Source of the DNA: a virus
Taxonomy: Duplodnaviria > Caudoviricetes
Strand: one strand, 5' to 3'
Virus record (IMG/VR): IMGVR_UViG_3300010352_002811
Coordinates: 30,444 to 94,443 of that record
Length of the DNA: 64,000 bases
The first letter of the stretch is position 1, and every line of letters starts with the position of its first letter. The position numbers and the translations under genes were made by a program. The notes under the pieces were generated by a model, which worked only from the letters and a program-made list of their open reading frames with translations, was not told where the DNA came from and did no database searches. This document shows positions 19,521 through 64,000 of this stretch, one piece after another.

Positions 19521-19542
19521 GATTGATTGAAATTGTTTGAAT

Positions 19543-19571
19543 GAAGGAGAGTCATTTGATTCTCCTTTTTT
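19543..19571 (+). terminator. Rho-independent terminator
   Basis: GAAGGAGAGTCA-tt-TGATTCTCCTTTTTT. Confidence 0.8.
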
Positions 19572-19587
19572 GTTCATAAATAATTAC

Positions 19588-20460: not shown

Positions 20461-20462
20461 AG

Positions 20463-21392: not shown

Positions 21393-21697
21393 GTTTCAAG
21401 AAGCTTTATCTAACTGAATCGGAACAACCTCTTCAATTTTCATTATCAAAGAAATTGAAAGTTGAGAAATTCGAATTCAGAAAAGACGGAACAAACTTTA
21501 TCATAAAAACGTTAACTCTTCCAGAAATTAATGTTAAGCTTGGAGATGGTGTTCGAGCAATGTTGGAAATTTATTCATATTGCGATAAAAAAGGTTATGA
21601 TGTTGTTCTAGATTGTAATTATCAGCAGTTTGTAGATTCTGTTGGTTTAGATTATTATGTTGAAGGAGTTAGAGTTCAAGTAGCGTTGGTTCTTTAA
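21389..21697 (+). CDS. Tagged small hypothetical protein
   Basis: MSFKKLYLTES, TTG start overlapping upstream stop. Confidence 0.55.
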   Translation: MSFKKLYLTESEQPLQFSLSKKLKVEKFEFRKDGTNFIIKTLTLPEINVKLGDGVRAMLEIYSYCDKKGYDVVLDCNYQQFVDSVGLDYYVEGVRVQVALVL

Positions 21698-21708
21698 TAA
21701 ATAACTAT

Positions 21709-22659
21709 ATGAACTTCAAAACTTTTTATTTGACAGAATCTGAAAATACTCATCTTGGTTATAAAATTGTAAACTATGATGGAAAACAAGCATACTCAAT
21801 CGCAGACAATAAAGTTAAATATTCTCTTAAAAAAGGAACAATTGAAACTGGGAAAATATATCTAGGAACCTCGGAGAAATACGCTCGAGCTTATTACTCA
21901 ACAGAATCTTCAGACCCAGATGACCCACAAGAATTACTTTTGGTATATGAAATCAATCCATCTGATATTATACAGGGAAATCTAGAAGACAAAGACCAAC
22001 TGACAGGTGGTAGTGAAATTATAGTCAGAAAAGCAAAATTAAAATCTGCTTATAATATCACGAAAAAAGAATATATTATTGAAATGCCATCTATTAACAA
22101 ATCAAATTCTGGCTGGTCTGAGAGTCCTGATCATTGGTCCGGAATTCAAGATAGATATAAATTAACAAAATTAGTCAAAGAATATAAAATTGGAAATACT
22201 GTATACCAGATACGTCAGAATAAAAGTAAAAATATTCTAGATGTATATTGTCTATCTTCAGAATTGTTATATGGAAATTCTAAAATAATTGGAGTTCTAC
22301 AGTTAAATAAATTAGACACAGATGATAGTATAAAACTTAAACGATTGAAATATCCAAAAATTTCATGGGTTGCTGTTCGCCCGGAATATAGAAATAAAGG
22401 AATTGCTTCTGGATTATATATTTCTGCTATAGATTATTTCGGTGGCCTTGTTTCAGATTCTTCTTTAACCAAACGCGATGATGGCTCAGGTTCATTAAAT
22501 GTTTGGACGTCTCTTCAAAAATCAAAATATGTTTATGCTTTTGATGGTGACAATTTTAAAGAACTTGATTCGCATGATATTGGTTCAGACGAATATCACA
22601 AATCAGATATTCTATTTGTCGCGTCTGAAAATAAAATCAAAGGAGCTATAGAAGAATGA
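21709..22659 (+). CDS. Tagged two-domain protein with C-terminal GNAT acetyltransferase
   Basis: MNFKTFYLTES; linker YIIEMP; VAVRPEYRNKGIASGLY GNAT motif A. Confidence 0.65.
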   Translation: MNFKTFYLTESENTHLGYKIVNYDGKQAYSIADNKVKYSLKKGTIETGKIYLGTSEKYARAYYSTESSDPDDPQELLLVYEINPSDIIQGNLEDKDQLTGGSEIIVRKAKLKSAYNITKKEYIIEMPSINKSNSGWSESPDHWSGIQDRYKLTKLVKEYKIGNTVYQIRQNKSKNILDVYCLSSELLYGNSKIIGVLQLNKLDTDDSIKLKRLKYPKISWVAVRPEYRNKGIASGLYISAIDYFGGLVSDSSLTKRDDGSGSLNVWTSLQKSKYVYAFDGDNFKELDSHDIGSDEYHKSDILFVASENKIKGAIEE

Positions 22660-23558
22660 GATTTTTAGAATTTTATCTATCAGAAGCCTCTCAAGAATAT
22701 AACATTGCTAAGACCCTGGCTGAAAAATTATCAAAGTTATTAGATGAGATAGAATATTCAGCAGAGAAGAATCCAGATTATCTTAAGAAATATAAATATA
22801 GTAATTCAGGACATTATCATATTCCATTAAAAGATTTTATAAAGAAAATAAACTTTCCAGAAGATTCGGTTTTTTCTCACTTGAAAGATGGGAAATTATA
22901 TCTTGAATATGGATATCGTGATGATTCAACAACACCATACCTATTAGCGGTTACTAGAGAAGATGGACATACATATAGAACAAAAGCTGGAGCATACTTT
23001 GACCAAGACAAATATTTTCTTGGAATTCATTTACCATTTATTGACCCAAAAACCGAACTTCCATATCAAGGATTTAGAACTCACTGGAAAAATCTTCTGA
23101 TACATGAATTAACTCATTATATTCAAGATTCTAAAGATTCGTCTAAATATGGCACATCAACATTATCATCAGAAGAATGGCATAAAGATAAAAAAGAACA
23201 AGAAGCGTATTTACATGAATTATACTCTCTATTTCAAAATTGGCTATCTGAAGAACTGTCAGACTTGAAGAATTTGCGAAATGATACAGAATACAAAAAA
23301 TCTGATATTCCTGAGTATGTAAAAAAGAATAATAGATTGGTTGACTTATTTTCTTCAGAAGAGATGTTTGAACGAAAATATCCAGTTGGTGAGATTTTGT
23401 TAGATAATGATAAACAAAAGAGAAGAATAAATTATCTTGCCGGAAATTTGAAAGATGTTTACAAAAAGTTTATTCATGATACATATATTGAATTGAAAAA
23501 AGAATTCAGGAACGTTCTACCTACTAAGAAATTAAGTTATTCGGGAGTAAAGAAGTGA
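22656..23558 (+). CDS. Tagged zincin-like metallopeptidase
   Basis: MRFLEFYLSEA; LLIHELTHYIQ (HExxH) with downstream EQEAY. Confidence 0.7.
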   Translation: MRFLEFYLSEASQEYNIAKTLAEKLSKLLDEIEYSAEKNPDYLKKYKYSNSGHYHIPLKDFIKKINFPEDSVFSHLKDGKLYLEYGYRDDSTTPYLLAVTREDGHTYRTKAGAYFDQDKYFLGIHLPFIDPKTELPYQGFRTHWKNLLIHELTHYIQDSKDSSKYGTSTLSSEEWHKDKKEQEAYLHELYSLFQNWLSEELSDLKNLRNDTEYKKSDIPEYVKKNNRLVDLFSSEEMFERKYPVGEILLDNDKQKRRINYLAGNLKDVYKKFIHDTYIELKKEFRNVLPTKKLSYSGVKK

Positions 23559-24241
23559 TGTTCAAAGATTTTTATTTTCTTGAAAGTCTCCAAATTTCTT
23601 TATCCAAAAAAGCTTGGGATAAGTTGTCTTCTGAAGCTCAACAAGCTATAATATCTTGGGAAGCTTCTAATTGGGTTGGTGGAACTTTAGAAAAACATAT
23701 AAAGGCGAATGACTCTGTCGCAAAAGAAATAAAACAAGTAATGAAACCAATTCTAGATTCTATAAAAGGTGATACCGTAACGCTTTATAGAGGGGCAACC
23801 AAGGAAATAATGGACGAACCAAGATTTTTACAGTCTTGGACTTCTTCAGAAAAAGTTGCGAAACATTTTGCCGGATTAAGTTCAAGTCAAACAAAAGATA
23901 TTCCATTAACTTATCCAACATATACTCAAAAAGAAATTGATGATGTTGTTGAAAAATTTAATAAAACAGGTTATGTTAAATTTGACAATCAATATTTTAT
24001 AGTTGACAAAAAGAATCCAAAATATTACAACATATATGATAAAGAACGAAATCTTGTAACTGATAGCGAAACGAGCGAATTCAGAAATAACATAACTTCC
24101 AGTTATGATGAACGAATAGATTTGAACAATAAACGAACCAAAGACAAAGTCGTACTAAAACGAACATTTGATAAAAACAAAATCATCTGGATATCTAACA
24201 ATCTAGATTCTAAAGAATATATTGTCAAGGTAGATGAATGA
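23555..24241 (+). CDS. Tagged ADP-ribosyltransferase-like protein (R-S-E type)
   Basis: MFKDFYFLES; TLYRG, SWTSS..VA..FA, C-terminal KEYIV. Confidence 0.6.
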   Translation: MMFKDFYFLESLQISLSKKAWDKLSSEAQQAIISWEASNWVGGTLEKHIKANDSVAKEIKQVMKPILDSIKGDTVTLYRGATKEIMDEPRFLQSWTSSEKVAKHFAGLSSSQTKDIPLTYPTYTQKEIDDVVEKFNKTGYVKFDNQYFIVDKKNPKYYNIYDKERNLVTDSETSEFRNNITSSYDERIDLNNKRTKDKVVLKRTFDKNKIIWISNNLDSKEYIVKVDE

Positions 24242-24256
24242 CCCATAAATAGTTCT

Positions 24257-25768
24257 ATGAATAGTGACACTCTTTATAGAACGCTTTACCTACTTGAAAA
24301 TGACATTGCTAGGCTGGACGAAGCATTAGACCAGCAAAAGATAGATTCATTAACATCTCTTCTTCCATCGGCTACAGCAGATTCAATTATTCAGCTTCAT
24401 AAACAAAATAATGATAATGGTGTTATGTCTCAATTGAATTCATATCTAAGAACTGCGATTGGTAAAAAGGCTTCGTCCATTGATGATGCTATAAAGATTT
24501 TGAAACAAGATAAGTCCGAAATCACTTCAATTACTAATATTTTACTTAGAGCATCAATGCCAAAAGACCAAGTTGATAAAATGACAAGTGTTGAAAAAAG
24601 AAGAACTCTGAACACACTCGCAGAAAAAAGCGGAATTAGCACAAAAGGAAAACCCACTGCTGAGGTAACAAGCGCGTTAAGTAATGTTCTTGCTGTTAAA
24701 AAGGCATCTCAAGATAAAACAACATCAGCTACAGGAGAATTTAATAGAACCAAAAATGTTCAAGCAACTGAACCATTCCCCGGCAAGCGTCAAATTTTCA
24801 TAAACAATTACAAAAAGACATTAGCTCTTGGATGGCCTGGAGAACCTATTAAAGTTAAAGGTGGAACCGCAGACAATCCCGAAATTGAGCAAACTGTTGG
24901 CAAATTAATTCCATTCAATGTTGGTGCTAAAATTGGAACAAAATTGACAAACGCAATTCCAGGCACAAAAGTTCTTCCTCTCTGGATAAAAACTGCGAAG
25001 AATTTGGTTTATAATAAGTTCAAGCAAGACCCAACAGGTTTGAAGAAGTTGCTTGACGCTGTAAATGATATAATTGAAAAGAATAAGCAGTACAAATTAT
25101 CTAAGCGTGTTGGCTTTAGAGATGTTTTCAAATCTTTAGGAAATTCATTCTTAGCTAAGTTTGGTGCTAGTGATAAGGATTTGGCTGTATTTAATTGGCT
25201 CGTCACAAAAGCCGTTGGTATGGACATTTTTGAATTCCAGAAACTCATTCTCGAAGAAGTCATGTCAGCAATAGATATGACAGATGAACGACTTTTGAAA
25301 ATGGAAAATGTTGCTAAAGGTTTGAAGAGAATGTTTGAAAGAGCCCCTGAAGCGAATAAGTTTTCAATCTCTTCATTAAAATCATCTCAATCTTATGATG
25401 GTGGGTATAAAGTTTGGTATGTAATCAAATCAAATGTCAAACCTCCAACAACATCAACAATTGCGAGCCCTATGGAATTTTATCTTAGAATGCTTGAAGA
25501 ATATATTAAACTTCCTGCTGGTAAAAAGTGGACAGAAGTGCCATCTGAAAAAGATATTAGAAATGAACAAATTAAATTGAGAGATTATAGCATTGGTCGC
25601 TCAAAAGAAAAATATTCTTATGATGATACTGAAGATGGTCCTTTGAGTTGTGTTGATGAAGAGAAACAAGGAGACAAATTGATAGGAAAACAGTTTATGT
25701 ACCCGGTCTTCTTGGAACGAAATGGCCTTTATATTTACGTAACATATAACCCGGAGAGAGAAGAATGA
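24257..25768 (+). CDS. Tagged late hypothetical protein
   Basis: TAAATA-N5-ATG; LYRTLYLLEND..LDEA. Confidence 0.5.
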   Translation: MNSDTLYRTLYLLENDIARLDEALDQQKIDSLTSLLPSATADSIIQLHKQNNDNGVMSQLNSYLRTAIGKKASSIDDAIKILKQDKSEITSITNILLRASMPKDQVDKMTSVEKRRTLNTLAEKSGISTKGKPTAEVTSALSNVLAVKKASQDKTTSATGEFNRTKNVQATEPFPGKRQIFINNYKKTLALGWPGEPIKVKGGTADNPEIEQTVGKLIPFNVGAKIGTKLTNAIPGTKVLPLWIKTAKNLVYNKFKQDPTGLKKLLDAVNDIIEKNKQYKLSKRVGFRDVFKSLGNSFLAKFGASDKDLAVFNWLVTKAVGMDIFEFQKLILEEVMSAIDMTDERLLKMENVAKGLKRMFERAPEANKFSISSLKSSQSYDGGYKVWYVIKSNVKPPTTSTIASPMEFYLRMLEEYIKLPAGKKWTEVPSEKDIRNEQIKLRDYSIGRSKEKYSYDDTEDGPLSCVDEEKQGDKLIGKQFMYPVFLERNGLYIYVTYNPEREE

Positions 25769-25965
25769 AATTTAGCGAATATGTTGAAATGATTAATACC
25801 ACTGAAGTTAATGAAGATGACAATCCACAGCAATTGGCTCAAATCAAAGCTATTGACTCTCAGATTGATGCGAAGAAAAAGCAGATTGAATCTTTGAATA
25901 AGCAGCTCGCCCAATTGGTTCAGAAGAAAGCATCTCTTGGGGGAATGGTTGATAAGGAACTGTAA
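25765..25965 (+). CDS. Small tagged coiled-coil protein
   Basis: MKFSEY..VNE, heptad Q/K-rich helix. Confidence 0.55.
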   Translation: MKFSEYVEMINTTEVNEDDNPQQLAQIKAIDSQIDAKKKQIESLNKQLAQLVQKKASLGGMVDKEL

Positions 25966-29409: not shown

Positions 29410-30199
29410 AGGAATTAAATATCTCACAGGAACAAACCAAATATCTGATAAAGAGTTTGTTAAGTTTCTTCTAAGCATTCCTGAAAAAAAATTAACAAAT
29501 CAAAATTCTTCAATCTCAGAAAAGCTTGATGGATTTGGATTTCGTTTTGGATATGATGGAAGATTTTTTGTAGAATCGTCTCGTTCAGGCCCCGTGTATG
29601 AATCAGGAGTGTTTAATTCTTATACCGAAAAGAAATTTGGAAAAAAGAACGCCATTTCTGAGGCGTATGAATCTCTGTTTGAAAATCTTGGAAGAAATGA
29701 GAAAATCCAAGAAATATTGAAAAATCATCAGAATGAAAAACTTGTCTGCGAATGCTTGTATACAAATCTTGGAACGGTTGACCAAGAACGAATTAGATTT
29801 GTAAAAACTTGGTATGATATTGATAAACTTGGAACATTCGCTACATTCGGGTTTATCAAAATTGTGGATGAAAACGGAAACGAAATCCAATCAAACATTT
29901 TCCAACAGCTTCAAAATATAAGTGATGACAACATAAAATTTGTAGATTCGACACTAAAAGAATATGATATTTGTCTTAATTGTGAGTTGAAAGAGTTTGA
30001 CAATATTTTAGAAACGTATGGTAGACAAACAATTCTTTCGATGCTACAATCAAAGAAGAAAGCTAGCTGCCTGACACAGTTGGATTCGGTTAGAAAAATG
30101 GTTGAATGGAAGCTGAAACAAATGCTGAAATCTGGAATTCTTGGAGATGTTGAAGGATTCGTAGTTAAGAAAGATGACACAATTTTCAAAATACTATGA
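29390..30199 (+). CDS. ATP-dependent ligase-like (RNA ligase-type) nucleotidyltransferase
   Basis: SEKLDG (motif I KxDG), VCECLY, EGFVVK..FK (motifs IV/V). Confidence 0.6.
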   Translation: MEQTKRKGIKYLTGTNQISDKEFVKFLLSIPEKKLTNQNSSISEKLDGFGFRFGYDGRFFVESSRSGPVYESGVFNSYTEKKFGKKNAISEAYESLFENLGRNEKIQEILKNHQNEKLVCECLYTNLGTVDQERIRFVKTWYDIDKLGTFATFGFIKIVDENGNEIQSNIFQQLQNISDDNIKFVDSTLKEYDICLNCELKEFDNILETYGRQTILSMLQSKKKASCLTQLDSVRKMVEWKLKQMLKSGILGDVEGFVVKKDDTIFKIL

Positions 30200-30333
30200 A
30201 AATAAAACTAAAGATTGAAAAATTAATTTATACAAACATTACAGGAAACTTGTTATATTATTATCAGTTTTCTAGATGGCCTTCTTGGTCGCAAACCGGA
30301 AGGATTCGTCGTAACAAATTTAATATAGGCTAA
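30196..30333 (+). CDS. MK(I/V)-family small basic protein (45 aa)
   Basis: Manual translation MKIKLKIEKLIYTNITGNLLYYYQFSRWPSWSQTGRIRRNKFNIG; ATGA overlap. Confidence 0.5.
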   Translation: MKIKLKIEKLIYTNITGNLLYYYQFSRWPSWSQTGRIRRNKFNIG

Positions 30334-30338
30334 TTCAA

Positions 30339-30494
30339 ATGAAAATACAATTTCATATAGTTTCTTCACAAACTTATTTCTCATTAAGTTCTACAAATTT
30401 TAGAATATACTAAAGATATTACTTTACCCGTGATAGATGTAACCGGCGCAGGTATTCATTCAACACATTAAAAAGAATTAGAAAATATGCTTAA
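30339..30494 (+). pseudogene. MK(I/V)-family gene with internal TAA
   Basis: MKIQFHIVSSQTYFSLSSTNFRIY*RYYFTRDRCNRRRYSFNTLKRIRKYA*; TAA at 30411; end overlaps next ATG. Confidence 0.45.
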
Positions 30495-36195: not shown

Positions 36196-36430
36196 AATTG
36201 TAGTTTGCTTCTCTCATAAGTGTCATACATGTTTTGACCATATTAAGAAACTTCAATCTTTATTTGATTTGGAATTAATTGATATGGATGAGAATCAAGA
36301 CATGTATGAGATTATGAATATTGAGAAAACCCCCACAACAATATTATACAAAAAAGAAAATGAGTTGTGGAGGAAAGAAGGAATGTTTTTTGATTCGCAA
36401 ATTAATGACATGCGAAAGATGATGAAATGA
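36188..36430 (+). CDS. Thioredoxin-like protein
   Basis: CHTC, IEKTPT..WRKEG. Confidence 0.7.
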   Translation: MFRIVVCFSHKCHTCFDHIKKLQSLFDLELIDMDENQDMYEIMNIEKTPTTILYKKENELWRKEGMFFDSQINDMRKMMK

Positions 36431-36699
36431 AAGTTAGATTTGTTGTAGATAATAAACAAACATCAAATATCAACATTATTAAAATTTGGTGCCGTCGAAA
36501 AACAGATGTTGATTTTGTTGATGTGAACGTTCCTTGTTTTATTACAGAACGAGGTGTTGCGGCTCAAGCATTTACGAGAAAATTCAGAAATATTGACGAA
36601 GTTGTTCACGAATTCCGCAGATACAAAGTTGTTTATATTTACAATCCACCATATGAAACCATAAATTTACTAATAACATTACGATACTATGGAGAATAA
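36427..36699 (+). CDS. MK(I/V)-family small basic protein
   Basis: MKVRFVV start, ATGA overlap. Confidence 0.5.
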   Translation: MKVRFVVDNKQTSNINIIKIWCRRKTDVDFVDVNVPCFITERGVAAQAFTRKFRNIDEVVHEFRRYKVVYIYNPPYETINLLITLRYYGE

Positions 36700-43163: not shown

Positions 43164-43463
43164 ATGTTTAACTTTGATATTGAAACTGTTGATTATAAAG
43201 TTGTTGCGAATGATGAACGAACTGAACTTCTTGTTTATTTGCCAGGAGTTAGAAAAGAAGATGTTTCTGTTGAACTTGATTCTTATCTGACCGTCAAAGC
43301 AAAAAATAAAATCGGTTATTCTAAATGGTCGTTCGAAAAAAGTTGGAAGATTGGTGAGGGTGTTGATGTTGAAAAAATTTCATCTTCCTTGGTTGATGGA
43401 GTTCTTTCAATCACCCTCCCAGCAGCCGAATCTAACAAACCAAGAAAAATACGGGTTGACTAA
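43164..43463 (+). CDS. Small heat-shock protein Hsp20
   Basis: LPGV.KEDV.V, F..S, I.S.L.DGVL.ITLP, PRKI.V. Confidence 0.9.
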   Translation: MFNFDIETVDYKVVANDERTELLVYLPGVRKEDVSVELDSYLTVKAKNKIGYSKWSFEKSWKIGEGVDVEKISSSLVDGVLSITLPAAESNKPRKIRVD

Positions 43464-43484
43464 AATCTTCCAAATGACTATCTT
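43456..43484 (+). promoter_or_regulatory. Sigma70-type promoter with TCTTCCAA box
   Basis: TTGACT-17 nt (aaaaTCTTCCAAatgac)-TATCTT. Confidence 0.6.
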
Positions 43485-43544: not shown

Positions 43545-43808
43545 ATGAAAATTCAATTAAAAATATCAACAAATGCCTGGATTCATTCAATTCATACCAT
43601 TCAATACAATTCCAACGTTATTTCAATTAACATACGAAGAGGTGATGGAATATTTTGTCATGTTGGAATTACGGGCGTCAAAAAGATTCCGAGAATAGAT
43701 GGCTTGACAATAAAAGGATACCGAATAATTACAAAAATAAAACGAAAACATAGAGAATTCCAAAAAGAAACTAATAAAATGCTAAAATTAGTCAGGTTTG
43801 AAAATTAA
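43545..43808 (+). CDS. MK(I/V)-family small basic protein
   Basis: MKIQLKIS at ATG 43545. Confidence 0.55.
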   Translation: MKIQLKISTNAWIHSIHTIQYNSNVISINIRRGDGIFCHVGITGVKKIPRIDGLTIKGYRIITKIKRKHREFQKETNKMLKLVRFEN

Positions 43809-43816
43809 AGGAATGT

Positions 43817-44053
43817 ATGAAAATTGTAGCAAAAATTTCGGAGTTCGCAGAAGATATTAGAGGCTCTTTTGAATTTTCTGTTCAATCAAATACCGTAGAA
43901 GCTATACGAGTATATGATGATGAAAATATTGATTATAAGAAAGTTAGGAAATTTATAAAATCTGCGAGACTTGGAAAAATAGATTGGAAATTGGATGATG
44001 AGTTATATAATTCTGTAGTTATTCCAGAACATTTTTATAGAACTAATATATGA
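43817..44053 (+). CDS. MK(I/V)-family small protein
   Basis: MKIVAKIS; AAGGA SD. Confidence 0.55.
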   Translation: MKIVAKISEFAEDIRGSFEFSVQSNTVEAIRVYDDENIDYKKVRKFIKSARLGKIDWKLDDELYNSVVIPEHFYRTNI

Positions 44054-44271
44054 AAATACAATTAAAAATACAATTAAAAATAACTAAATCTAAGCTTGAT
44101 ATTTTTAATTTTATTGGAAAGACTATTCGTAAAACAACATTTGTAATAAGAGCATATCAGGAAAGTTGTTTTATAATGGATGAATCCTGGGTTAAAATGT
44201 CAAATTGGAAATCCTTACGTTATTACTCCAGAATAAATCATCTAAAACAGAAAATACTTAGACTAAAATGA
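44050..44271 (+). CDS. MK(I/V)-family small basic protein
   Basis: MKIQLKIQLKI (tag duplicated in tandem). Confidence 0.55.
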   Translation: MKIQLKIQLKITKSKLDIFNFIGKTIRKTTFVIRAYQESCFIMDESWVKMSNWKSLRYYSRINHLKQKILRLK

Positions 44272-44345
44272 AAATCTAATTAAAAGTTATGGATGAAGAT
44301 AATGAATATGCTGATTTTCGCATAAAATTGAAGATTCTGTTTTAA
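44268..44345 (+). pseudogene. Decayed MK(I/V)-family gene
   Basis: ATG AAA ATC TAA TTA AAA GTT = MKI*LKV, one base from MKIQLKV. Confidence 0.45.
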
Positions 44346-44360
44346 TAAGGATGTATAAAA

Positions 44361-45248
44361 ATGAACATTGAAGAACAACAATATTTGAACACTGTAAGAA
44401 ATATCATCAACAATGGATATGAACAAGATGATAGAACGGGAGTCGGAACATTCACAGATGTTGGTGTTCAGATGAAGTTCAATCTCAGAAATTCAACACT
44501 TCCATTGATGACTTCACGCAGAACTTTTTATAGAGGTGCGATTGAAGAACTCCTCTGGCTTCTTCGTGGTGAAACTGATATTACTTCATTGAAAGAAAAG
44601 AACATTCATATTTGGGATGGAAACACAACCAAAGAGTTTATTAAGAACCGAGGACTTGAAGGAATTGTACCGGAAAATTCTGTTGGAACTCTCTATGGTT
44701 TTCAATTTCGAAATTGGAATGGCGATTGGATTGAATGGAGAGACAATCATAACAGAACCGGAATCGATCAGTTGAAAAAGATTCTTGATTTGATGAAAAA
44801 TGACCCCGGAAGCAGAAGAATCCTCGCATCCAATTACAATGTCGGACAAACTCAAACAGGTGTCCTTGAACCTTGTCACGCATTATATTCATTCAATCTT
44901 GACGAAAAAAGAAAAGAACTTCATTCACTTCTTTGGATGAGGTCTGCTGATATGTTATGTGGAGTTCCGTTAAATATATTACATGTTAGTATTATGGCTC
45001 ACATCTTTTCAAAAATGATTGGGTATGAAGCAGCAACATTTACATTTCAAGCAGCCAACGCACATGTCTATAAAAATCATGTTCCCGATGCTTTGGTACA
45101 GATTGATAGAGAACCATTTGAATTCCCAAAGATTGACATTGTGAAAGATGTCAAAACGATTGAAGATATTGAAAGTTTGGCATTTGAAGATTTTAAGATT
45201 ACTGGATATAAGTATCACGAACCTATAAAGTATGAGATGGCAATATGA
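44361..45248 (+). CDS. td: Thymidylate synthase ThyA
   Basis: DRTGVGT, EELLW.LRG, IWD, YGFQFR, SRR, LEPCH, RSAD..GVPLN, HVY. Confidence 0.95.
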   Translation: MNIEEQQYLNTVRNIINNGYEQDDRTGVGTFTDVGVQMKFNLRNSTLPLMTSRRTFYRGAIEELLWLLRGETDITSLKEKNIHIWDGNTTKEFIKNRGLEGIVPENSVGTLYGFQFRNWNGDWIEWRDNHNRTGIDQLKKILDLMKNDPGSRRILASNYNVGQTQTGVLEPCHALYSFNLDEKRKELHSLLWMRSADMLCGVPLNILHVSIMAHIFSKMIGYEAATFTFQAANAHVYKNHVPDALVQIDREPFEFPKIDIVKDVKTIEDIESLAFEDFKITGYKYHEPIKYEMAI

Positions 45249-45490
45249 AAGTAAGATTAATAATTGTTGAACATGAATTTAATAAGGGAGATTATCAACT
45301 TATCGCGTCTTATAATATTCCTGGAAAAAATATGATAAATTTGTCAAACTGGCTCAAAGGATATGTTTATGCTATTAATGACAAAAACAATGTTCAGAGA
45401 ATTATAACATTTTCTTTTAATGATAATATAAGAACAGTTATAAAAACTGGTATCGTGCTTGATAAACTTAAAATCGAGACTATCCTATGA
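45245..45490 (+). CDS. MK(I/V)-family small protein
   Basis: MKVRLII; ATGA overlap; paralog of next ORF. Confidence 0.55.
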   Translation: MKVRLIIVEHEFNKGDYQLIASYNIPGKNMINLSNWLKGYVYAINDKNNVQRIITFSFNDNIRTVIKTGIVLDKLKIETIL

Positions 45491-45726
45491 AGATAATTTT
45501 CAATATTAAAAAAAACCCATATAATGATACAGATTATATTGTTATGAATTCTCGTAAAATTGAGACAGGCGGAACATGCATTTTTAATTTTACCCCATCT
45601 TACGGCGGATATGTCTCATTTGAAAGTTCTAAAAATTACATAATCTACAACTTCAATAACCATATCAGAGATGTTATGAAAACTTTTAGATTACATAGAA
45701 AATTAAATTTCAAAACGAGAATATAA
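45487..45726 (+). CDS. MK(I/V)-family small protein
   Basis: MKIIFNI; shares GYV..II..FN..IR.V.KT..L..KL with previous ORF. Confidence 0.55.
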   Translation: MKIIFNIKKNPYNDTDYIVMNSRKIETGGTCIFNFTPSYGGYVSFESSKNYIIYNFNNHIRDVMKTFRLHRKLNFKTRI

Positions 45727-45929
45727 TGAAAATACGATTAACCATAAGAAAATATGATAGCTCGTCATACATATTAAGAACTAACAAAACATTTAGAATA
45801 AAATCTTTAGATTGTAGAAAATTTAGAAATGTGATGAAGCTGGAACAAAAATATAATGATGTAATAAAAGAACTTGGATACTTGGGAAAACGATGTGAAA
45901 TAGAAAAACGTTCGGCAGGGGTATTATGA
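45726..45929 (+). CDS. MK(I/V)-family small basic protein
   Basis: MKIRLTI; TAATG overlap. Confidence 0.55.
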   Translation: MKIRLTIRKYDSSSYILRTNKTFRIKSLDCRKFRNVMKLEQKYNDVIKELGYLGKRCEIEKRSAGVL

Positions 45930-46120
45930 AAGTAAAAATGAAAATTGGCGCGGATTATTTCGGCACATTAAATGGTTTTTATTTTCATGATGCCGACTAT
46001 AGAAAACTAAGAACATTTTATCGTTACAAGTTTAAGTTAAATGAATTAAAAACATTGACGAAACAAGTTCAAACAGAATATAATGAGCTTACTAAGTATT
46101 TTATTACAGGACGGTTATGA
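45926..46120 (+). CDS. MK(I/V)-family small basic protein
   Basis: MKVKMKI; ATGA overlap. Confidence 0.55.
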   Translation: MKVKMKIGADYFGTLNGFYFHDADYRKLRTFYRYKFKLNELKTLTKQVQTEYNELTKYFITGRL

Positions 46121-46344
46121 TGAAAGTAAAATTCAGAATATATAAATATCCAAATCTTTTTAGACTTGAAGGAAATTATAGATACGAAAATGGTATTTAT
46201 ACAAATAGTATTCTTAATAATTTAAATCCAAAAGCATTGAGAGATGAAAATAGGAGCTTACTAAAAATAAAACAGTATGAGAATTTAATTGAACAAGAAG
46301 AATCTAAGTTAATTAAAAACCGGAAGCATTTATATGAAAGATAA
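46117..46344 (+). CDS. MK(I/V)-family small basic protein
   Basis: MMKVKFRI; ATGA overlap. Confidence 0.55.
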   Translation: MMKVKFRIYKYPNLFRLEGNYRYENGIYTNSILNNLNPKALRDENRSLLKIKQYENLIEQEESKLIKNRKHLYER

Positions 46345-46347
46345 TCT

Positions 46348-46536
46348 ATGAGCATTCCAAATTTCGAAACAATGACAGTAGACGAAGCGATAAAATATTG
46401 TTATCGTCATCAAAAAGATTATGATGGAGATGTTGGACGAAGGGAGTTTGATTGCCTGATTGCTATTTTAGAATCAGGAACTATCAAGCCATCTGAATTG
46501 CCTGATTATGGAATGGATTACAAAGATGAGCCATAA
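46348..46536 (+). CDS. Small acidic hypothetical protein
   Basis: ORF track; unrelated to flanking basic ORFs. Confidence 0.55.
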   Translation: MSIPNFETMTVDEAIKYCYRHQKDYDGDVGRREFDCLIAILESGTIKPSELPDYGMDYKDEP

Positions 46537-46681
46537 AGTCAGACTAAAATTTCATACTTATTGGTACGGCATGACGGAATACCATTATAAGTTTTATGGT
46601 TATTTCGAATCCATGAAAACTTGGGTCTCGAAAACAAAACCAACGAAGAGATTCTGGAAACTTAAAAATCGTTGGGGGTGA
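46526..46681 (+). CDS. MK(I/V)-family-like small basic protein (51 aa)
   Basis: Manual translation MSHKVRLKFHTYWYG...KRFWKLKNRWG. Confidence 0.45.
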   Translation: MSHKVRLKFHTYWYGMTEYHYKFYGYFESMKTWVSKTKPTKRFWKLKNRWG

Positions 46682-46767
46682 ATATGAAAGCGCAGATGAG
46701 GCTATATAAAACAATGTTACTCGTTATTGTTCATAGAATTCATAAATAGTTTCAAGAGGACTATTAT

Positions 46768-47643
46768 ATGAAATTTAGAGAATACCTTGAACAGTTTTTA
46801 TCAGAAGCAGAAGAACTAATTCCTGCTGAGTCTCAATTCAAATCAGAGACAGATTCTTCCGAGACGGTTGACGCGGTTGGGGAAGTTGGTGTTGAAATGG
46901 TTCCCGTGGCCGAAGTACCAAAAGATGCTGTAGATATTGAATCCGAATCTGCTGAGGCGAAATGGATTCTGAAAGGCGCAAGAACTCCAGAAGATGCTTG
47001 GGAAGAATACAACAAACACTATATCCCAAAACTCATGATGAATACTGTTGAGACTGCTGGTATTGGAAAAGGGCAGTTCTATACTTTGGGCATCACTTCT
47101 CTAAAATCCGGCAAGTTGGGAAATGCTGAAACTCACGATACTGAAAAAGATGATGAGAAACTTTCCCGAAGCAAGGAACGCGAAGCAAGAGCTAAAGCAT
47201 TCCTTTTGATTGGACAGTGCCGAGTGAAAGATATTGGTGTGATGGAAGGTTTTCATAAGCCATTCGTTCTCGGAGTTCGTATTAAACTAACCGGGGATTC
47301 TGTTAAAAAGAAGATTGGAACTTGGTTGGAAAAGAAGTTGTCCAAGCTAGATTCGTCAAAAAAGAAATTCAAGCACATCAAAACTATGACAAATGATTTT
47401 GACACAGTTCTTGGTGAAAATGAGTTCGCGGTTCCTGTTCACTGGATTCCAAGACTCAGAGAAGCAATTGAGAAGAACGTTTCCCGGAAGCACGTTGAGG
47501 CTGAGCAGGAAAAAGAAAAGGCTAAAGAATCTGGTGAGAAATATGTCGCTCCAAAATCTACCCACGTTGCTTTCGGAACTGAAGGACGCATTAAAGTTGG
47601 TGAGCGTCATTCAATAAAACTCCCTCCTCTCGGAAAACGATAA
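46768..47643 (+). CDS. Tagged late protein, probable head-internal protein
   Basis: TAAATA 46743 plus GAGGA SD; MKFREYLEQFLSEAEE; acidic N-terminus, basic C-terminus. Confidence 0.55.
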   Translation: MKFREYLEQFLSEAEELIPAESQFKSETDSSETVDAVGEVGVEMVPVAEVPKDAVDIESESAEAKWILKGARTPEDAWEEYNKHYIPKLMMNTVETAGIGKGQFYTLGITSLKSGKLGNAETHDTEKDDEKLSRSKEREARAKAFLLIGQCRVKDIGVMEGFHKPFVLGVRIKLTGDSVKKKIGTWLEKKLSKLDSSKKKFKHIKTMTNDFDTVLGENEFAVPVHWIPRLREAIEKNVSRKHVEAEQEKEKAKESGEKYVAPKSTHVAFGTEGRIKVGERHSIKLPPLGKR

Positions 47644-47765: not shown

Positions 47766-47794
47766 TTGACTTGGAAGAAAGATGAGGCTATACT
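47766..47794 (+). promoter_or_regulatory. Sigma70-type promoter with TTGGAAGA box
   Basis: TTGACT-tggaagaaagatgaggc(17)-TATACT. Confidence 0.8.
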
Positions 47795-47799
47795 TAAGC

Positions 47800-48813
47800 A
47801 TGAAGATGAAAGACGGCTTAGATTTATCTTACAACGACGTGCTAATTGACCCGAAGGTCTCGACCATTTCTTCCAGATTTGGTGTTGAAGTTAATCCATT
47901 TTACGAAGGGCATTCTCTACCAATCGTCTCTGCGCCAATGGATTCAATTTTCTCAAAGTCATTCGCATCATCTTGTTCGAATCGTTTGTTTGTTATCTTT
48001 TCTCACAGATTCCAAACGATTGAACAACAGATTACAGATATCACTAATGGAGCAAATGGAGCAGTAATTGGATTAAATTCTCCAGACGATGAGATTGAAC
48101 GCTATATAAATGCTGGAGCTAAACATATTTTGATTGATGTTGCGAATGGTGGAAATATTGCTGTCAGAGAAAAACTTAAGTCTATTCAAAAATATAGGAA
48201 TCAAGTTTTTCTTTGGGCTGGAAATGTGGCAAACGCGGAATGTTTCAATCTAATTAAGTTCTTCTGTGATTATATTCGCGTAGGAATTGCTTCAGGATTT
48301 GCTTGTTCTACAGCTACTAACACAGGTATCTCAAGAGGAATTATTTCATCTATTATTGATTGTCGAAATTCATACAACACGAGCCACCAACTTTCTGTTA
48401 AATCATCTGCGAAAATTGTTGCGGATGGTGGAATCAAGACTAATGGAGACATTTGTAAAGCGTTGGCGGCAGGAGCACATCTTATTATGATTGGAAAACT
48501 GTTCGCAGCATGTCCAGAATCAGGCGCTCCAGACAAATACGAAAATGGAATTTATTATAAGCGTTATCGTGGAATGGCTTCTGCTGAGGTAAACAAGACA
48601 TCCGGCAAGCAAAAATATTCTATTGAAGGAGAATCTGGTTGGGTTCTTCGTTTATCACCAGTATCAGAATTTTTGGACAATCTTGAATCAAATCTTAGAA
48701 GTTCAATGAGTTATGTTGACGCGCACAATCTCGAAGAATTCTATGACAAGACAACACTAGTCAAGATTTCACAAAGCGTCTTCTTGGAAAAACAAACCCA
48801 CTTCAACTCATAA
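47800..48813 (+). CDS. IMP dehydrogenase/GMP reductase family protein (no CBS domains)
   Basis: SYNDVLI.P, PIVSAPMD, IDVANG, AGNVA, RVGIASGFACST, VADGGIK..GDI.KALAAGA, YRGMAS, IEG, LRSSMSY. Confidence 0.88.
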   Translation: MKMKDGLDLSYNDVLIDPKVSTISSRFGVEVNPFYEGHSLPIVSAPMDSIFSKSFASSCSNRLFVIFSHRFQTIEQQITDITNGANGAVIGLNSPDDEIERYINAGAKHILIDVANGGNIAVREKLKSIQKYRNQVFLWAGNVANAECFNLIKFFCDYIRVGIASGFACSTATNTGISRGIISSIIDCRNSYNTSHQLSVKSSAKIVADGGIKTNGDICKALAAGAHLIMIGKLFAACPESGAPDKYENGIYYKRYRGMASAEVNKTSGKQKYSIEGESGWVLRLSPVSEFLDNLESNLRSSMSYVDAHNLEEFYDKTTLVKISQSVFLEKQTHFNS

Positions 48814-48835
48814 ATCTTCCAAATAAAACAAACAC

Positions 48836-48864
48836 TTGACTTGGAAGAAATCACTCGCTATACT
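48836..48864 (+). promoter_or_regulatory. Sigma70-type promoter with TTGGAAGA box
   Basis: TTGACT-tggaagaaatcactcgc(17)-TATACT; inverted TCTTCCAA at 48815. Confidence 0.8.
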
Positions 48865-49481: not shown

Positions 49482-49738
49482 TGCCAATTTATGAATATGG
49501 TTGCGAAGATTGTAAGCATGAAGAAGAGATTTTCCACAACAAGCCAATCAGCGAAGTTGTGGACCCTTCCGAATGCCCAAAATGCGGAAGTAAGAATTTC
49601 AAGAGACTTATGCCATCAAGCTTCCTGTTTGACGTGGTTGATGGATTTATGTATAATGGCGGACGAAAAGATTATAAGTCCAGAATGAGTTTAGAAGACC
49701 AAGTAAAAGTTGTCGAAGGAAAGAAAGACCCATATTAA
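49481..49738 (+). CDS. FmdB-family Zn-ribbon protein
   Basis: MPIYEYGCEDC..CPKCGS..KRLM. Confidence 0.85.
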   Translation: MPIYEYGCEDCKHEEEIFHNKPISEVVDPSECPKCGSKNFKRLMPSSFLFDVVDGFMYNGGRKDYKSRMSLEDQVKVVEGKKDPY

Positions 49739-49998
49739 TGAAAATTCGTTTTGATGTTTGTAATACATCGGATGAAAACGAGATTCCTACAAATCAGACG
49801 AATCTTATAGTATGGGCTTCGCCGGTCCAACGAGGATGGTTTTTGTTCGCATATTCCGCGTTACATAATAACAAAACATTTAATAACCAACCCGCCAGCA
49901 TATTTTCTTGGAATGATAAAAAACAACATCTTAAACTATTAAATAAACGTTTCTTCAAAAAATATAATTACTCTTTTAGAGAATCGTACCACATATGA
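49738..49998 (+). CDS. MK(I/V)-family small basic protein
   Basis: MKIRFDV; paralog of 50033 ORF. Confidence 0.55.
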   Translation: MKIRFDVCNTSDENEIPTNQTNLIVWASPVQRGWFLFAYSALHNNKTFNNQPASIFSWNDKKQHLKLLNKRFFKKYNYSFRESYHI

Positions 49999-50032: not shown

Positions 50033-50290
50033 TTGAAAATAAAAATGGTTGTTAGATTATCCGATTCTCAAAAAATATTGGATGATAATGAAACTCATCT
50101 AGTGTTCCGAAATTATTTAGAATCCCCGCCCTCAACTGACCGGGGATATTTCTTAAAAGCTTATTCATTTTTACATAACTATTTTTCAACACACGGCGAA
50201 CTAAAACAAAAATTCAAGTTTGTCAAAAAATTAAATTCAAGATATTTTAGAAAAGTTGGATATGTTATTAATCCAAATTTTCCAAACTAA
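50033..50290 (+). CDS. MK(I/V)-family small basic protein
   Basis: MKIKMVV (TTG start, AAGGA SD); shares N.T.L..RG.FL.AYS.LHN..LN.R.F.K..Y with 49738 ORF. Confidence 0.55.
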   Translation: MKIKMVVRLSDSQKILDDNETHLVFRNYLESPPSTDRGYFLKAYSFLHNYFSTHGELKQKFKFVKKLNSRYFRKVGYVINPNFPN

Positions 50291-56393: not shown

Positions 56394-56576
56394 ATGAAGA
56401 ATATTGCTCTTGTTGCTCTCACCCTAGCTACCATCGCTCTTGTTGCTTGTAATGCTAAGACTTCTAAGGATGCTGCTGATTCGACCAAGGTTGACACCAC
56501 AATTGTTGACACTGTTGCCGCTGATTCTGTTTCGGATTCAGCAGTTGTTGATTCTGTAGTCGATTCCGCAAAGTAA
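56394..56576 (+). CDS. Small lipoprotein
   Basis: Signal peptide MKNIALVALTLATIALVA-C (lipobox), then D/S/T/V repeats. Confidence 0.8.
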   Translation: MKNIALVALTLATIALVACNAKTSKDAADSTKVDTTIVDTVAADSVSDSAVVDSVVDSAK

Positions 56577-59666: not shown

Positions 59667-59850
59667 TTACAAAGACGAACAGACAGGAGAAATATTTGAA
59701 GTTCTAATAAAATCTGGACCAATCCCTGATGAAGTGATAAATGATAAAACTGGAAACGTCTCTAAGAGAATTTTTTCAGGTAACGTAGGATTTGAATTCA
59801 AAGGAAGTGGGTTTTATGAAACTGAATATAAGAGAAAAACTCCTAACTAA
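59653..59850 (+). CDS. FmdB-like protein lacking cysteines
   Basis: MPI.DY...G..FE..KRIFS...F.FKGSGFY.T.Y. Confidence 0.7.
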   Translation: MPIADYKDEQTGEIFEVLIKSGPIPDEVINDKTGNVSKRIFSGNVGFEFKGSGFYETEYKRKTPN

Positions 59851-60643
59851 AGAAGAGGAATTTGAAATTTTTAATAAGTATCGTCTTTTAGAAAATGCTT
59901 ATAGAAAAACAAAAGACGAGAATAAGAAGCAGCAAATTATTGACGTAAGAAATAAACTAAAGAATGAGATTTTCAACAAGAACATTGGCCTTGCTTTGGT
60001 AATGGCACAGAGAGCACGGCATAAGATTAAAGAAATTGTTGAAACTGATGATTTAATTCAATATGCTAGCTTCGGATTACTTAACGCGATTGATAGGTAT
60101 GATGTTTACTCAGGATACCGATTTTCAACATACGCCACCAAAGTTATTGAAACAAACATATTGCGAAAGTCATTAGATGTTAGCCGTGTTGTTAGAATTC
60201 CCCAAAAGGTTTATTCTGAATATTCTACAGTAGCAAGAAAGTTGTTTCAACGAAATACTGATGGAGAATGTAAACAAATAGCTGATGTTGCTGATGAATT
60301 AGGTAAGTCTTCAGAATATGTTGCGTCGGTTGTTAACTTAGTAAAATCAACAGAGACTACTGAAGAAGCGGTAATTGAAAAAGAGAATAACTATCTTAAA
60401 GAATTCGATGAACATTTCCTAGCACAAGATATAACGAAAAGTCTGGAATGCCTGAATGATGCTGAACGATATATTATTGTCAATTACTTTGGGCTTGATG
60501 GACATGTGGCAATGACTTGTGATGAACTCGCAAATATTCTCAATGTTACAAAATCAGCAGTTAGCGCTCGAATGAAACATATCATTGAAAAACTGAAGGA
60601 CGGAAAACTTCTGACTCATTGGAGATATTATGAAGCAGGTTGA
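59816..60643 (+). CDS. Sigma70-family RNA polymerase sigma factor
   Basis: LLTKEEE, N.GL...A, DLIQ...GL..AIDRYD...GYRFSTYA, R.VRIP, region 4 L..L...ER.II...FGL HTH. Confidence 0.9.
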   Translation: MKLNIREKLLTKEEEFEIFNKYRLLENAYRKTKDENKKQQIIDVRNKLKNEIFNKNIGLALVMAQRARHKIKEIVETDDLIQYASFGLLNAIDRYDVYSGYRFSTYATKVIETNILRKSLDVSRVVRIPQKVYSEYSTVARKLFQRNTDGECKQIADVADELGKSSEYVASVVNLVKSTETTEEAVIEKENNYLKEFDEHFLAQDITKSLECLNDAERYIIVNYFGLDGHVAMTCDELANILNVTKSAVSARMKHIIEKLKDGKLLTHWRYYEAG

Positions 60644-60836
60644 ACGAAGTGCCTCTGGAATTTTTTTGATTGAGAATGAACCCGATAAAGAAATTCGAGA
60701 AAGTCCAGGAGGTTATTTCTTTGAGAAGAGTCGGAAATCAGAACTCATCAGATTGAAACAAAAAGAAGAAATTCAAGAAGTCCGAAAGGTTTCTTGGGTT
60801 TCAAAGATTCTTAGTTGGTGGAGAAATGAAGATTAG
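60630..60836 (+). CDS. Hypothetical protein
   Basis: GGAG SD; C-terminal amphipathic SWVSKILSWW. Confidence 0.5.
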   Translation: MKQVERSASGIFLIENEPDKEIRESPGGYFFEKSRKSELIRLKQKEEIQEVRKVSWVSKILSWWRNED

Positions 60837-61005
60837 GTGGAATTTTGCCGCAGATGATGACCAAAAAAGGTGGGCATTATTTTTTAACAAACGATATGTT
60901 TATGTATTTCCAGGTTGGCCATTTGCAAAATATTACGAAGACCGACTAAAATATAACATGTTTACTAAAAATTTCTTCAGGCGAATGGCAAAAACATATG
61001 AATAA
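60826..61005 (+). CDS. MK(I/V)-family small basic protein (59 aa)
   Basis: Manual translation MKIRWNFAADDDQKRWALFF...FTKNFFRRMAKTYE. Confidence 0.5.
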   Translation: MKIRWNFAADDDQKRWALFFNKRYVYVFPGWPFAKYYEDRLKYNMFTKNFFRRMAKTYE

Positions 61006-61023: not shown

Positions 61024-61206
61024 ATGACTAAAATAAGTTTTCGGGTTCGGAAAATGGATTTTTATAAAGGAAATAATTGGATGTTTTGCGTATCATCAAA
61101 ATCTCAAATTATAACAAATTTTTACAATAAAGAAAACAAAATTCAAAGAACCTCAATATGCCCACACGAGTATAACTTTTTCAAACGAATGAAAATTAAG
61201 GTTTGA
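61024..61206 (+). CDS. MK(I/V)-family-like small basic protein
   Basis: MTKISFRV..; ends NFFKRMKIKV, similar to NFFRRM of previous ORF. Confidence 0.5.
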   Translation: MTKISFRVRKMDFYKGNNWMFCVSSKSQIITNFYNKENKIQRTSICPHEYNFFKRMKIKV

Positions 61207-61250: not shown

Positions 61251-61712
61251 ATGAATATTTTTGTTTTGGATGATGATTTTGAAAAGAATGCCGAGTTTCA
61301 ATGTGACAGGCATGTTGTTAAAATGATTACAGAACAAAATCAAATTCTATCAACATGTCATTGGATGACAGGTGGCTCTGCCAAATACAAGCCAACTCAT
61401 GTAAATCATCCTTGTAATGTTTGGGTTCGAGAATCTTTGGATAATTATGTTTGGCTTTGTTGGTCAACCAGTTTTCTTTGCCGGGAATATTCTCATCGTT
61501 ATGGTAGAACTCATGCTGGAGAAAATATTGTTAAAGAATTAAGTAAGAATTTTCCAGAACTACCCATAAAAGGTTTGACTTCATTTGCTCAAGCTATGCC
61601 AGAACATTATAAAAATGAAAATGCCGTAATTGCTTATAGAAATTATTATATGGGCGAAAAACGACATATCGCAAACTGGAAAAATAGAGAGGTTCCGGAA
61701 TGGTTCGAATGA
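61251..61712 (+). CDS. Pyrimidine-dimer DNA glycosylase/DenV-related protein
   Basis: MNIFVLD, CDRHVVKM..E..Q.LST.H, YKPTH.NHPC..W, AQAMP, AYR.YY..EK, W..R..P.W. Confidence 0.75.
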   Translation: MNIFVLDDDFEKNAEFQCDRHVVKMITEQNQILSTCHWMTGGSAKYKPTHVNHPCNVWVRESLDNYVWLCWSTSFLCREYSHRYGRTHAGENIVKELSKNFPELPIKGLTSFAQAMPEHYKNENAVIAYRNYYMGEKRHIANWKNREVPEWFE

Positions 61713-61879
61713 GAATTACGAATTTTGGATTAACCGTGTATATTCCGAATGTTGGGTTAGATAATAAAGGACTTAGCATAGATTTAGATTATTTCAAAGC
61801 TCCGGAATTTTATGGTTCTTCATATGTTAGACCATCAGAGCGCAAATTTGTTTCCAGAATGACGAAGTGGTTTACATGA
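61709..61879 (+). CDS. MK(I/V)-family-like small protein (56 aa)
   Basis: Manual translation MRITNFGLTV...RKFVSRMTKWFT; ATGA overlaps at both ends. Confidence 0.45.
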   Translation: MRITNFGLTVYIPNVGLDNKGLSIDLDYFKAPEFYGSSYVRPSERKFVSRMTKWFT

Positions 61880-62016
61880 AAATAACTCTCGCAATGACAA
61901 ATTTTGGAGTTTACAGAAGTTATACAGAAATATATTCTTATTATGACATTTCAATTAATCACATTCCACCTCGTTTATATTTCAAAAAGAGGTGGCGACG
62001 AATAATTAAAACTTGA
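61876..62016 (+). CDS. MK(I/V)-family small basic protein (46 aa)
   Basis: Manual translation MKITLAM...YFKKRWRRIIKT. Confidence 0.45.
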   Translation: MKITLAMTNFGVYRSYTEIYSYYDISINHIPPRLYFKKRWRRIIKT

Positions 62017-63577: not shown

Positions 63578-64000
63578 ATGAAATTCTCTAAATTCTATCT
63601 GACTGAAAATGCTGTTGAAAAATCAAAAGTTTTTAAGGATTTGAAAAACATCCTGTCTGGGTTTCAGCAAAAAGAACCAAGCGAAATCAAAGAAAGACCA
63701 AAGGGCGTCGTCATCAAATTTTCTCCTGTTGGTTCTTGGACAACATTCGTCTCTAATTTGAAAAACAATCTCAAAGGTTATCGATTTTTAGACACCAAGT
63801 CCGATAAAGACCAATTGGCTTTCAAAAACAATTCTCTGCTGTTCTGGACTCGTCTTGTTGGAAATGATGCGTTTGTCTATGTTACGAATCAATCAAATCT
63901 AAAAGAACCTGATTGGGGCGAAGAGGTTGAGACCGAACCCGAAGAAATTGAAACCGAGCCAGAAGAAGCTCCAGCAGAAGTTCCCGAACCAACAACATAA
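63578..64000 (+). CDS. Tagged late hypothetical protein
   Basis: TAAATA-N5-ATG; MKFSKFYLTEN; acidic E/P tail. Confidence 0.55.
   Translation: MKFSKFYLTENAVEKSKVFKDLKNILSGFQQKEPSEIKERPKGVVIKFSPVGSWTTFVSNLKNNLKGYRFLDTKSDKDQLAFKNNSLLFWTRLVGNDAFVYVTNQSNLKEPDWGEEVETEPEEIETEPEEAPAEVPEPTT

Follow-up and report, generated by a model that had tools for sequence, protein, structure and literature searches.

The window analysed here is a stretch of 64,000 nucleotides (positions 30,444 to 94,443 of IMG/VR virus record IMGVR_UViG_3300010352_002811) and forms part of a 94-kb contig of a T4-like myophage. At 43545-46749, and at scattered loci elsewhere on its plus strand, it carries small genes whose products begin with the motif M-K-I-x-L-x-I. 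We conclude that this motif forms strand 1 of a small, highly divergent domain, made of a β-sheet and a helix and shared by the members of a family: the homology of the protein bodies, a second, helical motif, the fixed spacing between the two motifs, an AlphaFold2 model and the internal position of the strand in some relatives lead to this conclusion. The interpretation that we moderately favour as a whole is that the members are early, host-directed binders belonging to one family, with a constant core and a variable face, and that they turn over by recombination at their start codons. The family and its turnover are held with high confidence, while the role as host effectors is a part towards which we only lean.

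Enrichment of the N-terminal pattern, proposed as a check by an earlier sequence-only reading of this DNA, is far above chance. The strict expression MK[IV]x[LFM]x[IVLF] matches 14 of the 96 MK-starting ATGs on the plus strand of the 94-kb contig and none of the 31 on the minus strand, while the chance expectation of 0.6% per MK start amounts to ~0.6 among the 96; among the 14 are a double count (46117/46120), a chance match out of frame (56168) and a 177-aa protein. Array loci of the clade harbor 4-15 motif open reading frames (ORFs) per 10 kb as compared to 0-2.6 in unrelated viral loci (16-44% GC), the exceptions to this separation being L028, a clade locus with a variant start (0.8 per 10 kb), and one unrelated 1.3-kb locus with a single match. 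The AT-rich start-codon context ATGAAAAT does not explain the motif, as unrelated loci that are equally or more AT-rich are nearly devoid of it. Moreover, the motif positions are encoded by many synonymous codons and one sister lineage begins with M-N-K-I-x-L-x-I instead, which argues that the peptide, and not ATGAAAAT, is under conservation. Selection of the start codons for stops in the two other frames was considered and dropped, motif position 3 showing no clear preference (ATT 35, ATA 32).

The family set comprises 106-121 ORFs from the window phage and seven relatives, the latter retrieved via thymidylate synthase and one clade-specific gene. The proteins are basic (median isoelectric point, pI, 9.65), with F, Y, I, K, R and N abundant, and their genes have 28% GC; their mutual identity is below 20% and few are linked by pairwise BLAST. 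In their C-terminal part, 51 of 106 members carry a second motif, hydrophobic-R-x-hydrophobic-x-K/R, as against 5.8 +/- 2.3 in shuffles (maximum 15); 14 members carry a variant, F-[FY]-R-R-M, as against 1.5. In an alignment (A3) of 62 members, the arginine lies 49-69 residues from the start. These members were chosen for h-R-x-h (h, hydrophobic) and the flanking positions fall outside this selection rule; there, K at -3 (66% basic), W/P/Y at -4 and K/R at +4 (87%) are enriched. The second element, situated about 50-65 residues after the first, is best described as a predicted basic amphipathic helix with a near-invariant arginine and the consensus [NST]-[WPY]-K-x-h-R-K-h-h-[KR]-[LI]. Between the two motifs, the member middles range in net charge from -10 to +5, and the sheet region averages -0.45.

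The bodies themselves are related. Among 1176 ORF segments of the contig, the eight that score highest with a hidden Markov model (HMM) trained only on the relatives are window members. In a test that kept the first 8 residues in place, shuffled the remainder and used an HMM built from the other phages, the bodies of 10 window members score significantly above shuffles (p 0.003-0.02), covering all eight intact genes of 43545-46344. Together with 6-7 probable members, these 10 make up the window repertoire, and 5-14 regex matches are found per syntenic locus in most relatives. Based on the family alignment, AlphaFold2 models the protein encoded at 45245 as four strands (3-9, 17-23, 39-45, 51-57) followed by a helix (62-74), with a predicted local distance difference test score (pLDDT) of 73 and a predicted template modelling score (pTM) of 0.44. 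The alternating hydrophobic residues of strand 1 probably pack against the C-terminal amphipathic helix. A homodimer prediction for the same protein scored 0.00 and yields no verdict, being evidence in neither direction. A strand resembling the motif is located 10-22 residues inside some array genes of relatives. To note, conserved array genes at L010:7592, L012:11886, L028 and the L030/L033 array ends carry an amphipathic M-F-D-F-F-K-K-K-like segment ahead of a K-I-x-I-x-I strand and are possibly membrane-anchored forms.

The main locus consists of two arrays. A sigma70-type promoter deduced from consensus (43456-43484, TTGACT-17 nt-TATCTT, with a TCTTCCAA box in the spacer) would head array 1, thymidylate synthase and array 2. 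Array 1 is formed by members at 43545-43808 (87 aa, body p 0.007), 43817-44053 (78 aa, helix motif YKKVRKFIK) and 44050-44271 (73 aa, with a 12-nt tandem duplication inside the motif). They are followed by a pseudogene member (44268-44364) with a stop at codon 4, an internal deletion and a frameshift, whose copy in strain contig L009 is intact and 71 aa long. The core gene for thymidylate synthase (44361-45248) separates the arrays, its stop overlapping the ATG of the first gene of array 2, the modelled member at 45245-45490 (81 aa). Next come its tandem paralog at 45487-45726 (79 aa) and members at 45726-45929 (67 aa), 45926-46120 (64 aa) and 46117-46344 (74-75 aa, significant body score). 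The array then contains an unrelated, acidic 62-aa ORF (46348-46536, lacking in L009), a probable member of 51 aa starting MSHKVRLKF (46526-46681, body score not significant) and a 21-aa remnant (46684-46749), in place of which L009 has a different remnant with the helix motif and identical last codons. All these features lie on the plus strand. The sequence-only reading had listed ten N-termini in this interval and nine elsewhere, and all are present at their coordinates, with adjustments: the start at 46526 is that given above, 61709 is probably 61700 and 50033 needs a TTG; the size range of 45-90 aa does not hold for the remnants at 46684 and 30339 (24 aa); the candidate at 36427 is doubtful and the pseudogene at 44268 had been overlooked. 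Its claim of coupling to stop codons stands, the overlap with the upstream stop being 4 nt in 44 of the 106 members, 11 nt in 13 and 1 nt in 9. Its description of genes wedged at core genes needs correction, most members overlapping fellow members.

Array content varies among strains that are 96-99% identical. In three strain contigs (L080, L007, L078) and at two array positions, whole genes have been deleted in register between shared first codons. In L080, the genes 45245, 45487 and 45726 are gone. Crossover took place in 11 nt, TATGAAAGTAA, that the starts of 45245 and 45926 have in common, and 45926 consequently overlaps the thymidylate synthase stop in this strain. L007 and L078 lack 44050 and are joined inside an 18-nt repeat shared with the next member, with differing junction letters. 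Conversely, L009 and L078 possess an extra paralog upstream of 43545 that has the same first 10 nt, and the L009 allele of 44050 has identical ends and a different middle. The crossovers of the whole-gene deletions thus fall within the initial 11-18 nt that members have in common, and ATGA coupling and frame are retained, which suggests that the strand-1 codons double as the joint of a gene accordion. Joints of 11-18 nt are shorter than usual assembly k-mers, and an assembly artefact is therefore unlikely. Phage T4 recombines at 6-10-bp microhomologies (PMC9391042), and the conserved strand-1 codons, as read from the sequences, would give every gene one site of this kind, with frame and ATGA overlap preserved. 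Tandem duplicates, pseudogenes, remnants and gene loss are signs of birth-and-death evolution. Two further rearrangements were observed: an IS607-like element (resolvase and TnpB-like gene) is inserted in array 2 of a relative (L029:7529-9392), and a gene of the IMPDH/GMP-reductase family (window 47766-48864) is entirely missing from L009 (9054-9069), the breakpoints being two copies of a promoter starting TTGACTTGGAAGAA (47766, 48836), which resembles a PeSL-like, promoter-mediated cassette loss.

Pooled ratios of nonsynonymous to synonymous substitution (dN/dS) of members are 0.48 (window versus L009), 0.27 (L030 versus L033) and 0.27 (L031 versus L077), as compared to 0.10, 0.09 and 0.05 for core genes in the same three comparisons (range 0.05-0.13). 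These ratios indicate that orthologous members are under purifying selection yet fast-evolving. No counterpart of any window member at >35% identity exists in L029, where core genes are 52-87% identical. By a test with a rough z threshold, 26 of 66 members have their best body match within the same phage (9.4 expected), 20 of these 26 within 600 nt, pointing to tandem duplication.

A promoter like that at 43456 is found at the same place in L009, L029 and L030, and none of 121 members has a late TAAATA element just upstream; the Shine-Dalgarno sites of members are weak. Early or middle expression from sigma70-type promoters is what we infer from these sequences. The phage also encodes a sigma70-like factor (window 59816-60643; phrog_351, E 1e-34), with two family members directly downstream. 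Its capsid protein shows at most 35% identity to the best-ranked cultured phages and the contig of one relative reaches 305 kb; the carriers of these microproteins are an uncultured, genus-level clade of T4-like jumbo phages. A MoxR-type ATPase and its vWA-peptidase partner are encoded by the phage, a pair that Iyer et al. (2021, PMC7824862) report for jumbo phages of their group 2.2. In the seven relatives, arrays occupy the same loci with differing member content. The samples of origin are probably digester sludge and landfill leachate. As for the host, scans of GTDB did not point to one, and a protein of one relative falls in a Bacteroidota-labelled bin. Consensus sigma70 promoters speak against a Bacteroidota host. 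A possible clue is a 60-aa lipoprotein-like ORF (window 56394-56576) with a signal peptide, a Cys and DSTKVDT repeats, kept in L029 and similar to an ORF in L032.

Searches for known families leave the domain on its own. Pfam, PHROGs, PADLOC and PDB sequence searches with members return no credible family, ESM Atlas gives no feature matches and models of low confidence, and Foldseek against BFVD and PDB yields nothing at E<=0.001. Searched against 1.84 billion proteins, the family profile retrieves clade members only, besides its top match (P0045), a spurious 1290-aa repeat protein. Relatives whose capsid protein is 78-80% identical carry the family, and no members were seen in the fragments of those at 44-63%, a lineage restriction whose test is limited by a weak profile and fragmentary contigs. 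Literature searches found no published description, and the earlier view of an undescribed, expanded, coupled and rapidly turning-over repertoire of microproteins with a β-strand N-terminus is borne out. Two specific identities were rejected. The match of 43817 to the T4 late coactivator gp33 (12.3 bits versus a cut-off of 25, E 0.16) is better explained by its helix YKKVRKFIK, and 43817 clusters with a family member; T4-type capsid-targeted internal proteins do not fit, there being neither a leader ending in hydrophobic-x-Glu nor a late promoter. The best structural match to the 45245 model is the TriTu immunity protein (PDB 7zhm; Z 6.1, rmsd 3.0, 71 aligned, 11% identity; TM 0.51 and E 0.87 by Foldseek), and no cognate toxin partner was identified adjoining members. 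It is followed by an AP2 tandem (Z 5.2, rmsd 5.3, 69 aligned), chain 6k4y_M of a sigma appropriation complex, which we take to be the MotA C-terminal domain (Z 4.4, rmsd 2.8, 65 aligned), an arm-type integrase domain (Z 4.0, rmsd 3.9, 68 aligned) and type III chaperones (Z 4-5). Members have no Pfam match to AP2, WGR, PC4 or the MotA C-terminal domain. These matches to a predicted model appear generic, at the level of a common arrangement, and would show neither homology nor function.

Host-directed binders with a shared core fit these observations best, because the basic helix stripe is constant, the charge of the middle variable, the genes dispensable and their change fast. The arrays would be transcribed early from sigma70-type promoters; the constant stripe (K-3, R0, K/R+4) would bind a single shared surface that is acidic or carries phosphate, and the variable sheet would select differing host targets, so that the repertoire might serve as a strain-specific kit of host-takeover or anti-defence binders. 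A PARG-type hydrolase and a nucleoside deoxyribosyltransferase are among the array neighbours in relatives, which is counted in favor of this role. A bolder and rather doubtful extension is a phage-evolved system of variable binders, in which the strand and Arg-helix core would dock on one common partner and the exchangeable sheet would recognise differing host proteins; the conserved ends of the coding sequences would serve as homology arms, swapping middles and adding or dropping whole genes in register. Several points weigh against this reading as a whole, the family and its turnover included. Of the 17 intact window candidates tested, seven fail to reach significance in the body score, and the second subgroup (49738) folds poorly (pLDDT 56) and may be a separate family. 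The alignment given to AlphaFold2 has only 11% column identity. The dN/dS pairs were picked by identity, which biases the ratios low. As to the turnover, the L007 and L078 deletions may share one origin, a deletion in strain L079 is out of register and leaves a 4-codon stub of 45726, and deletions at gene starts may be merely the tolerated ones, not the favoured ones.

The main rival, unlikely though it is in our estimation, keeps the same family and makes its members nucleic-acid-binding regulators of phage or host genes, in the style of AP2, WGR, PC4 or the MotA C-terminal domain. The high pI and richness in K, R, F and Y, the conserved basic stripe of the helix and the middling structural matches to the AP2 tandem, 6k4y_M and the integrase domain all suit it. 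AP2-type domains, however, read DNA via a basic sheet and the sheet region here is neutral on average; all Z-scores stay at the common-arrangement level, and the loss of three genes at once in L080 suits accessory effectors better. The 35-copy expansion of phage G proteins, proposed as transcription factors (PMC7824862), is a precedent for such regulators. A membrane role is less probable still: the amphipathic, basic and aromatic helix, together with the extra amphipathic segment that starts some array genes of relatives, could make the members peripheral inner-membrane proteins, acting for example in superinfection exclusion or envelope control. A near-invariant Arg, in place of either K or R, suggests a specific contact instead, and the hydrophobic face of the helix is, according to the model, probably needed as a cover for the sheet.

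The sequence-only reading had considered the N-terminal strand as a second address tag or as a β-strand that might complete a partner fold. Taken as an independent tag, the strand would serve packaging, export, degradation or docking on unrelated proteins. Its position at the start or within 1-4 residues of it in most members, the scarcity of pairwise BLAST links and the fact that other proteins of the phage bear a leader of their own, the capsid-targeting-like M-K-F-x-E-[YF], speak for a tag, an idea that we nevertheless find improbable: the bodies are homologous, their HMM scores beating shuffles, the helix follows at a fixed distance, and a similar strand is internal in some array genes of relatives. 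Furthermore, the motif is restricted to proteins of about 40-105 aa and was not found on long proteins of known families or domains, one 177-aa ORF excepted. This ORF (G000:C1:25309-25842, 5134 before the window start) combines the strand-motif start with a QIRKYYKL helix at ~residue 40, has no clear HMM score and is possibly the domain fused to another. That the ORFs are untranslated or neutral filler, generated by AT-rich start context and slippage, is very improbable. The 28% GC, the weak Shine-Dalgarno sites and the pseudogenes and remnants would agree with it; it is contradicted by selection (dN/dS <1), by frames that are intact across diverged orthologs, by the two protein-level motifs and by the negative-control loci.

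Outside the two arrays, members are scattered on the plus strand of the window. The gene at 49738-49998 belongs to the F-[FY]-R-R-M helix subgroup; its locus is retained, with 1-3 copies, in most of the relatives that were examined. The gene is followed by its tandem paralog with a TTG start (50033-50290), where L009 has a single gene. Further members are found at 60826-61005 (59 aa, FFRRM helix, body p 0.013) and 61024-61206 (60 aa, FFKRM helix, body p 0.003). Two probable ones, at 61700-61879 (59 aa) and 61876-62016 (46 aa), have body scores that are not significant. A short probable member (30196-30333, 45 aa) possesses the N-terminal motif only and precedes the remnant with motif (30339-30413), and the doubtful 90-aa candidate (36427-36699), with a positional ortholog in L077, has no significant body score. 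The capsid-targeting-like leader (M-K-F-x-E-Y/F ... L-x-E), distinct from the microproteins, starts many proteins at window 18894-25965, 46768-47643 (plus strand) and 63578-64000. A sister phage at 63% capsid identity (G003, L111:6115-7331) displays a parallel expansion, in which another family of small proteins, marked by an E-K-I-L-x-x-P-x-Y-like motif at the C-terminus, forms a tandem array. At G000:C1:20474-20830 and in the L030/L033 arrays, family members adjoin two genes whose products might remove ADP-ribose in counter-defence: a small FVFGSNLAGRHG-type gene, presumably macrodomain-like, and a PARG-family gene.

Small ORFans constitute much of jumbo-phage genomes and are usually regarded as unrelated singletons; here, about 120 of them are reduced to one scaffold with a conserved surface, the helix Arg, and a visible turnover mechanism, providing a set of proteins on which to ask whether one scaffold is diversified by phages to meet many host targets. 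T4 internal proteins with a capsid-targeting sequence are likewise small and polymorphic and share a short N-terminal motif; the present members differ in having neither the glutamate cleavage motif nor a late promoter, the capsid-tag-like leader being on other phage proteins. The predicted model resembles small β-meander-plus-helix domains such as TriTu, the latter at 11% identity and with a score typical of a common arrangement. Bacillus phage G has some 35 zinc-ribbon proteins, an expansion specific to its lineage (Iyer et al. 2021, PMC7824862). That case is similar in that one small domain is multiplied in a jumbo phage lineage with unproven function. It differs in its fold, as there are no conserved cysteines here, and the present family occurs in a T4-like clade with <20% mutual identity and strain-level gain and loss. 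In T4, segmental amplification of dmd-tifA through microhomologies of 6-10 bp (Srikant et al. 2022, PMC9391042) also alters the copy number of small genes, for an anti-defence purpose like that proposed here; TifA, however, is a single characterised antitoxin with differing breakpoints. Alongside the phage G expansion, the closest published parallel is the shuffling of T4-type hyperplastic regions at PeSL promoter-terminator cassettes (PMC2839356, PMC4122927), where small non-essential ORFs behind sigma70-type promoters are inserted, deleted or replaced via short repeats. The phage described here also shows a promoter-bounded deletion, at its IMPDH-family gene. Its array ORFs, in contrast, are paralogs, and those array breakpoints that could be resolved map to coding starts or to the interior of genes, not to promoter-stem-loop cassettes: the joint is the start of the coding sequence and not a regulatory cassette, which suggests that conserved gene starts can play the role of PeSL cassettes in T4-type phages.

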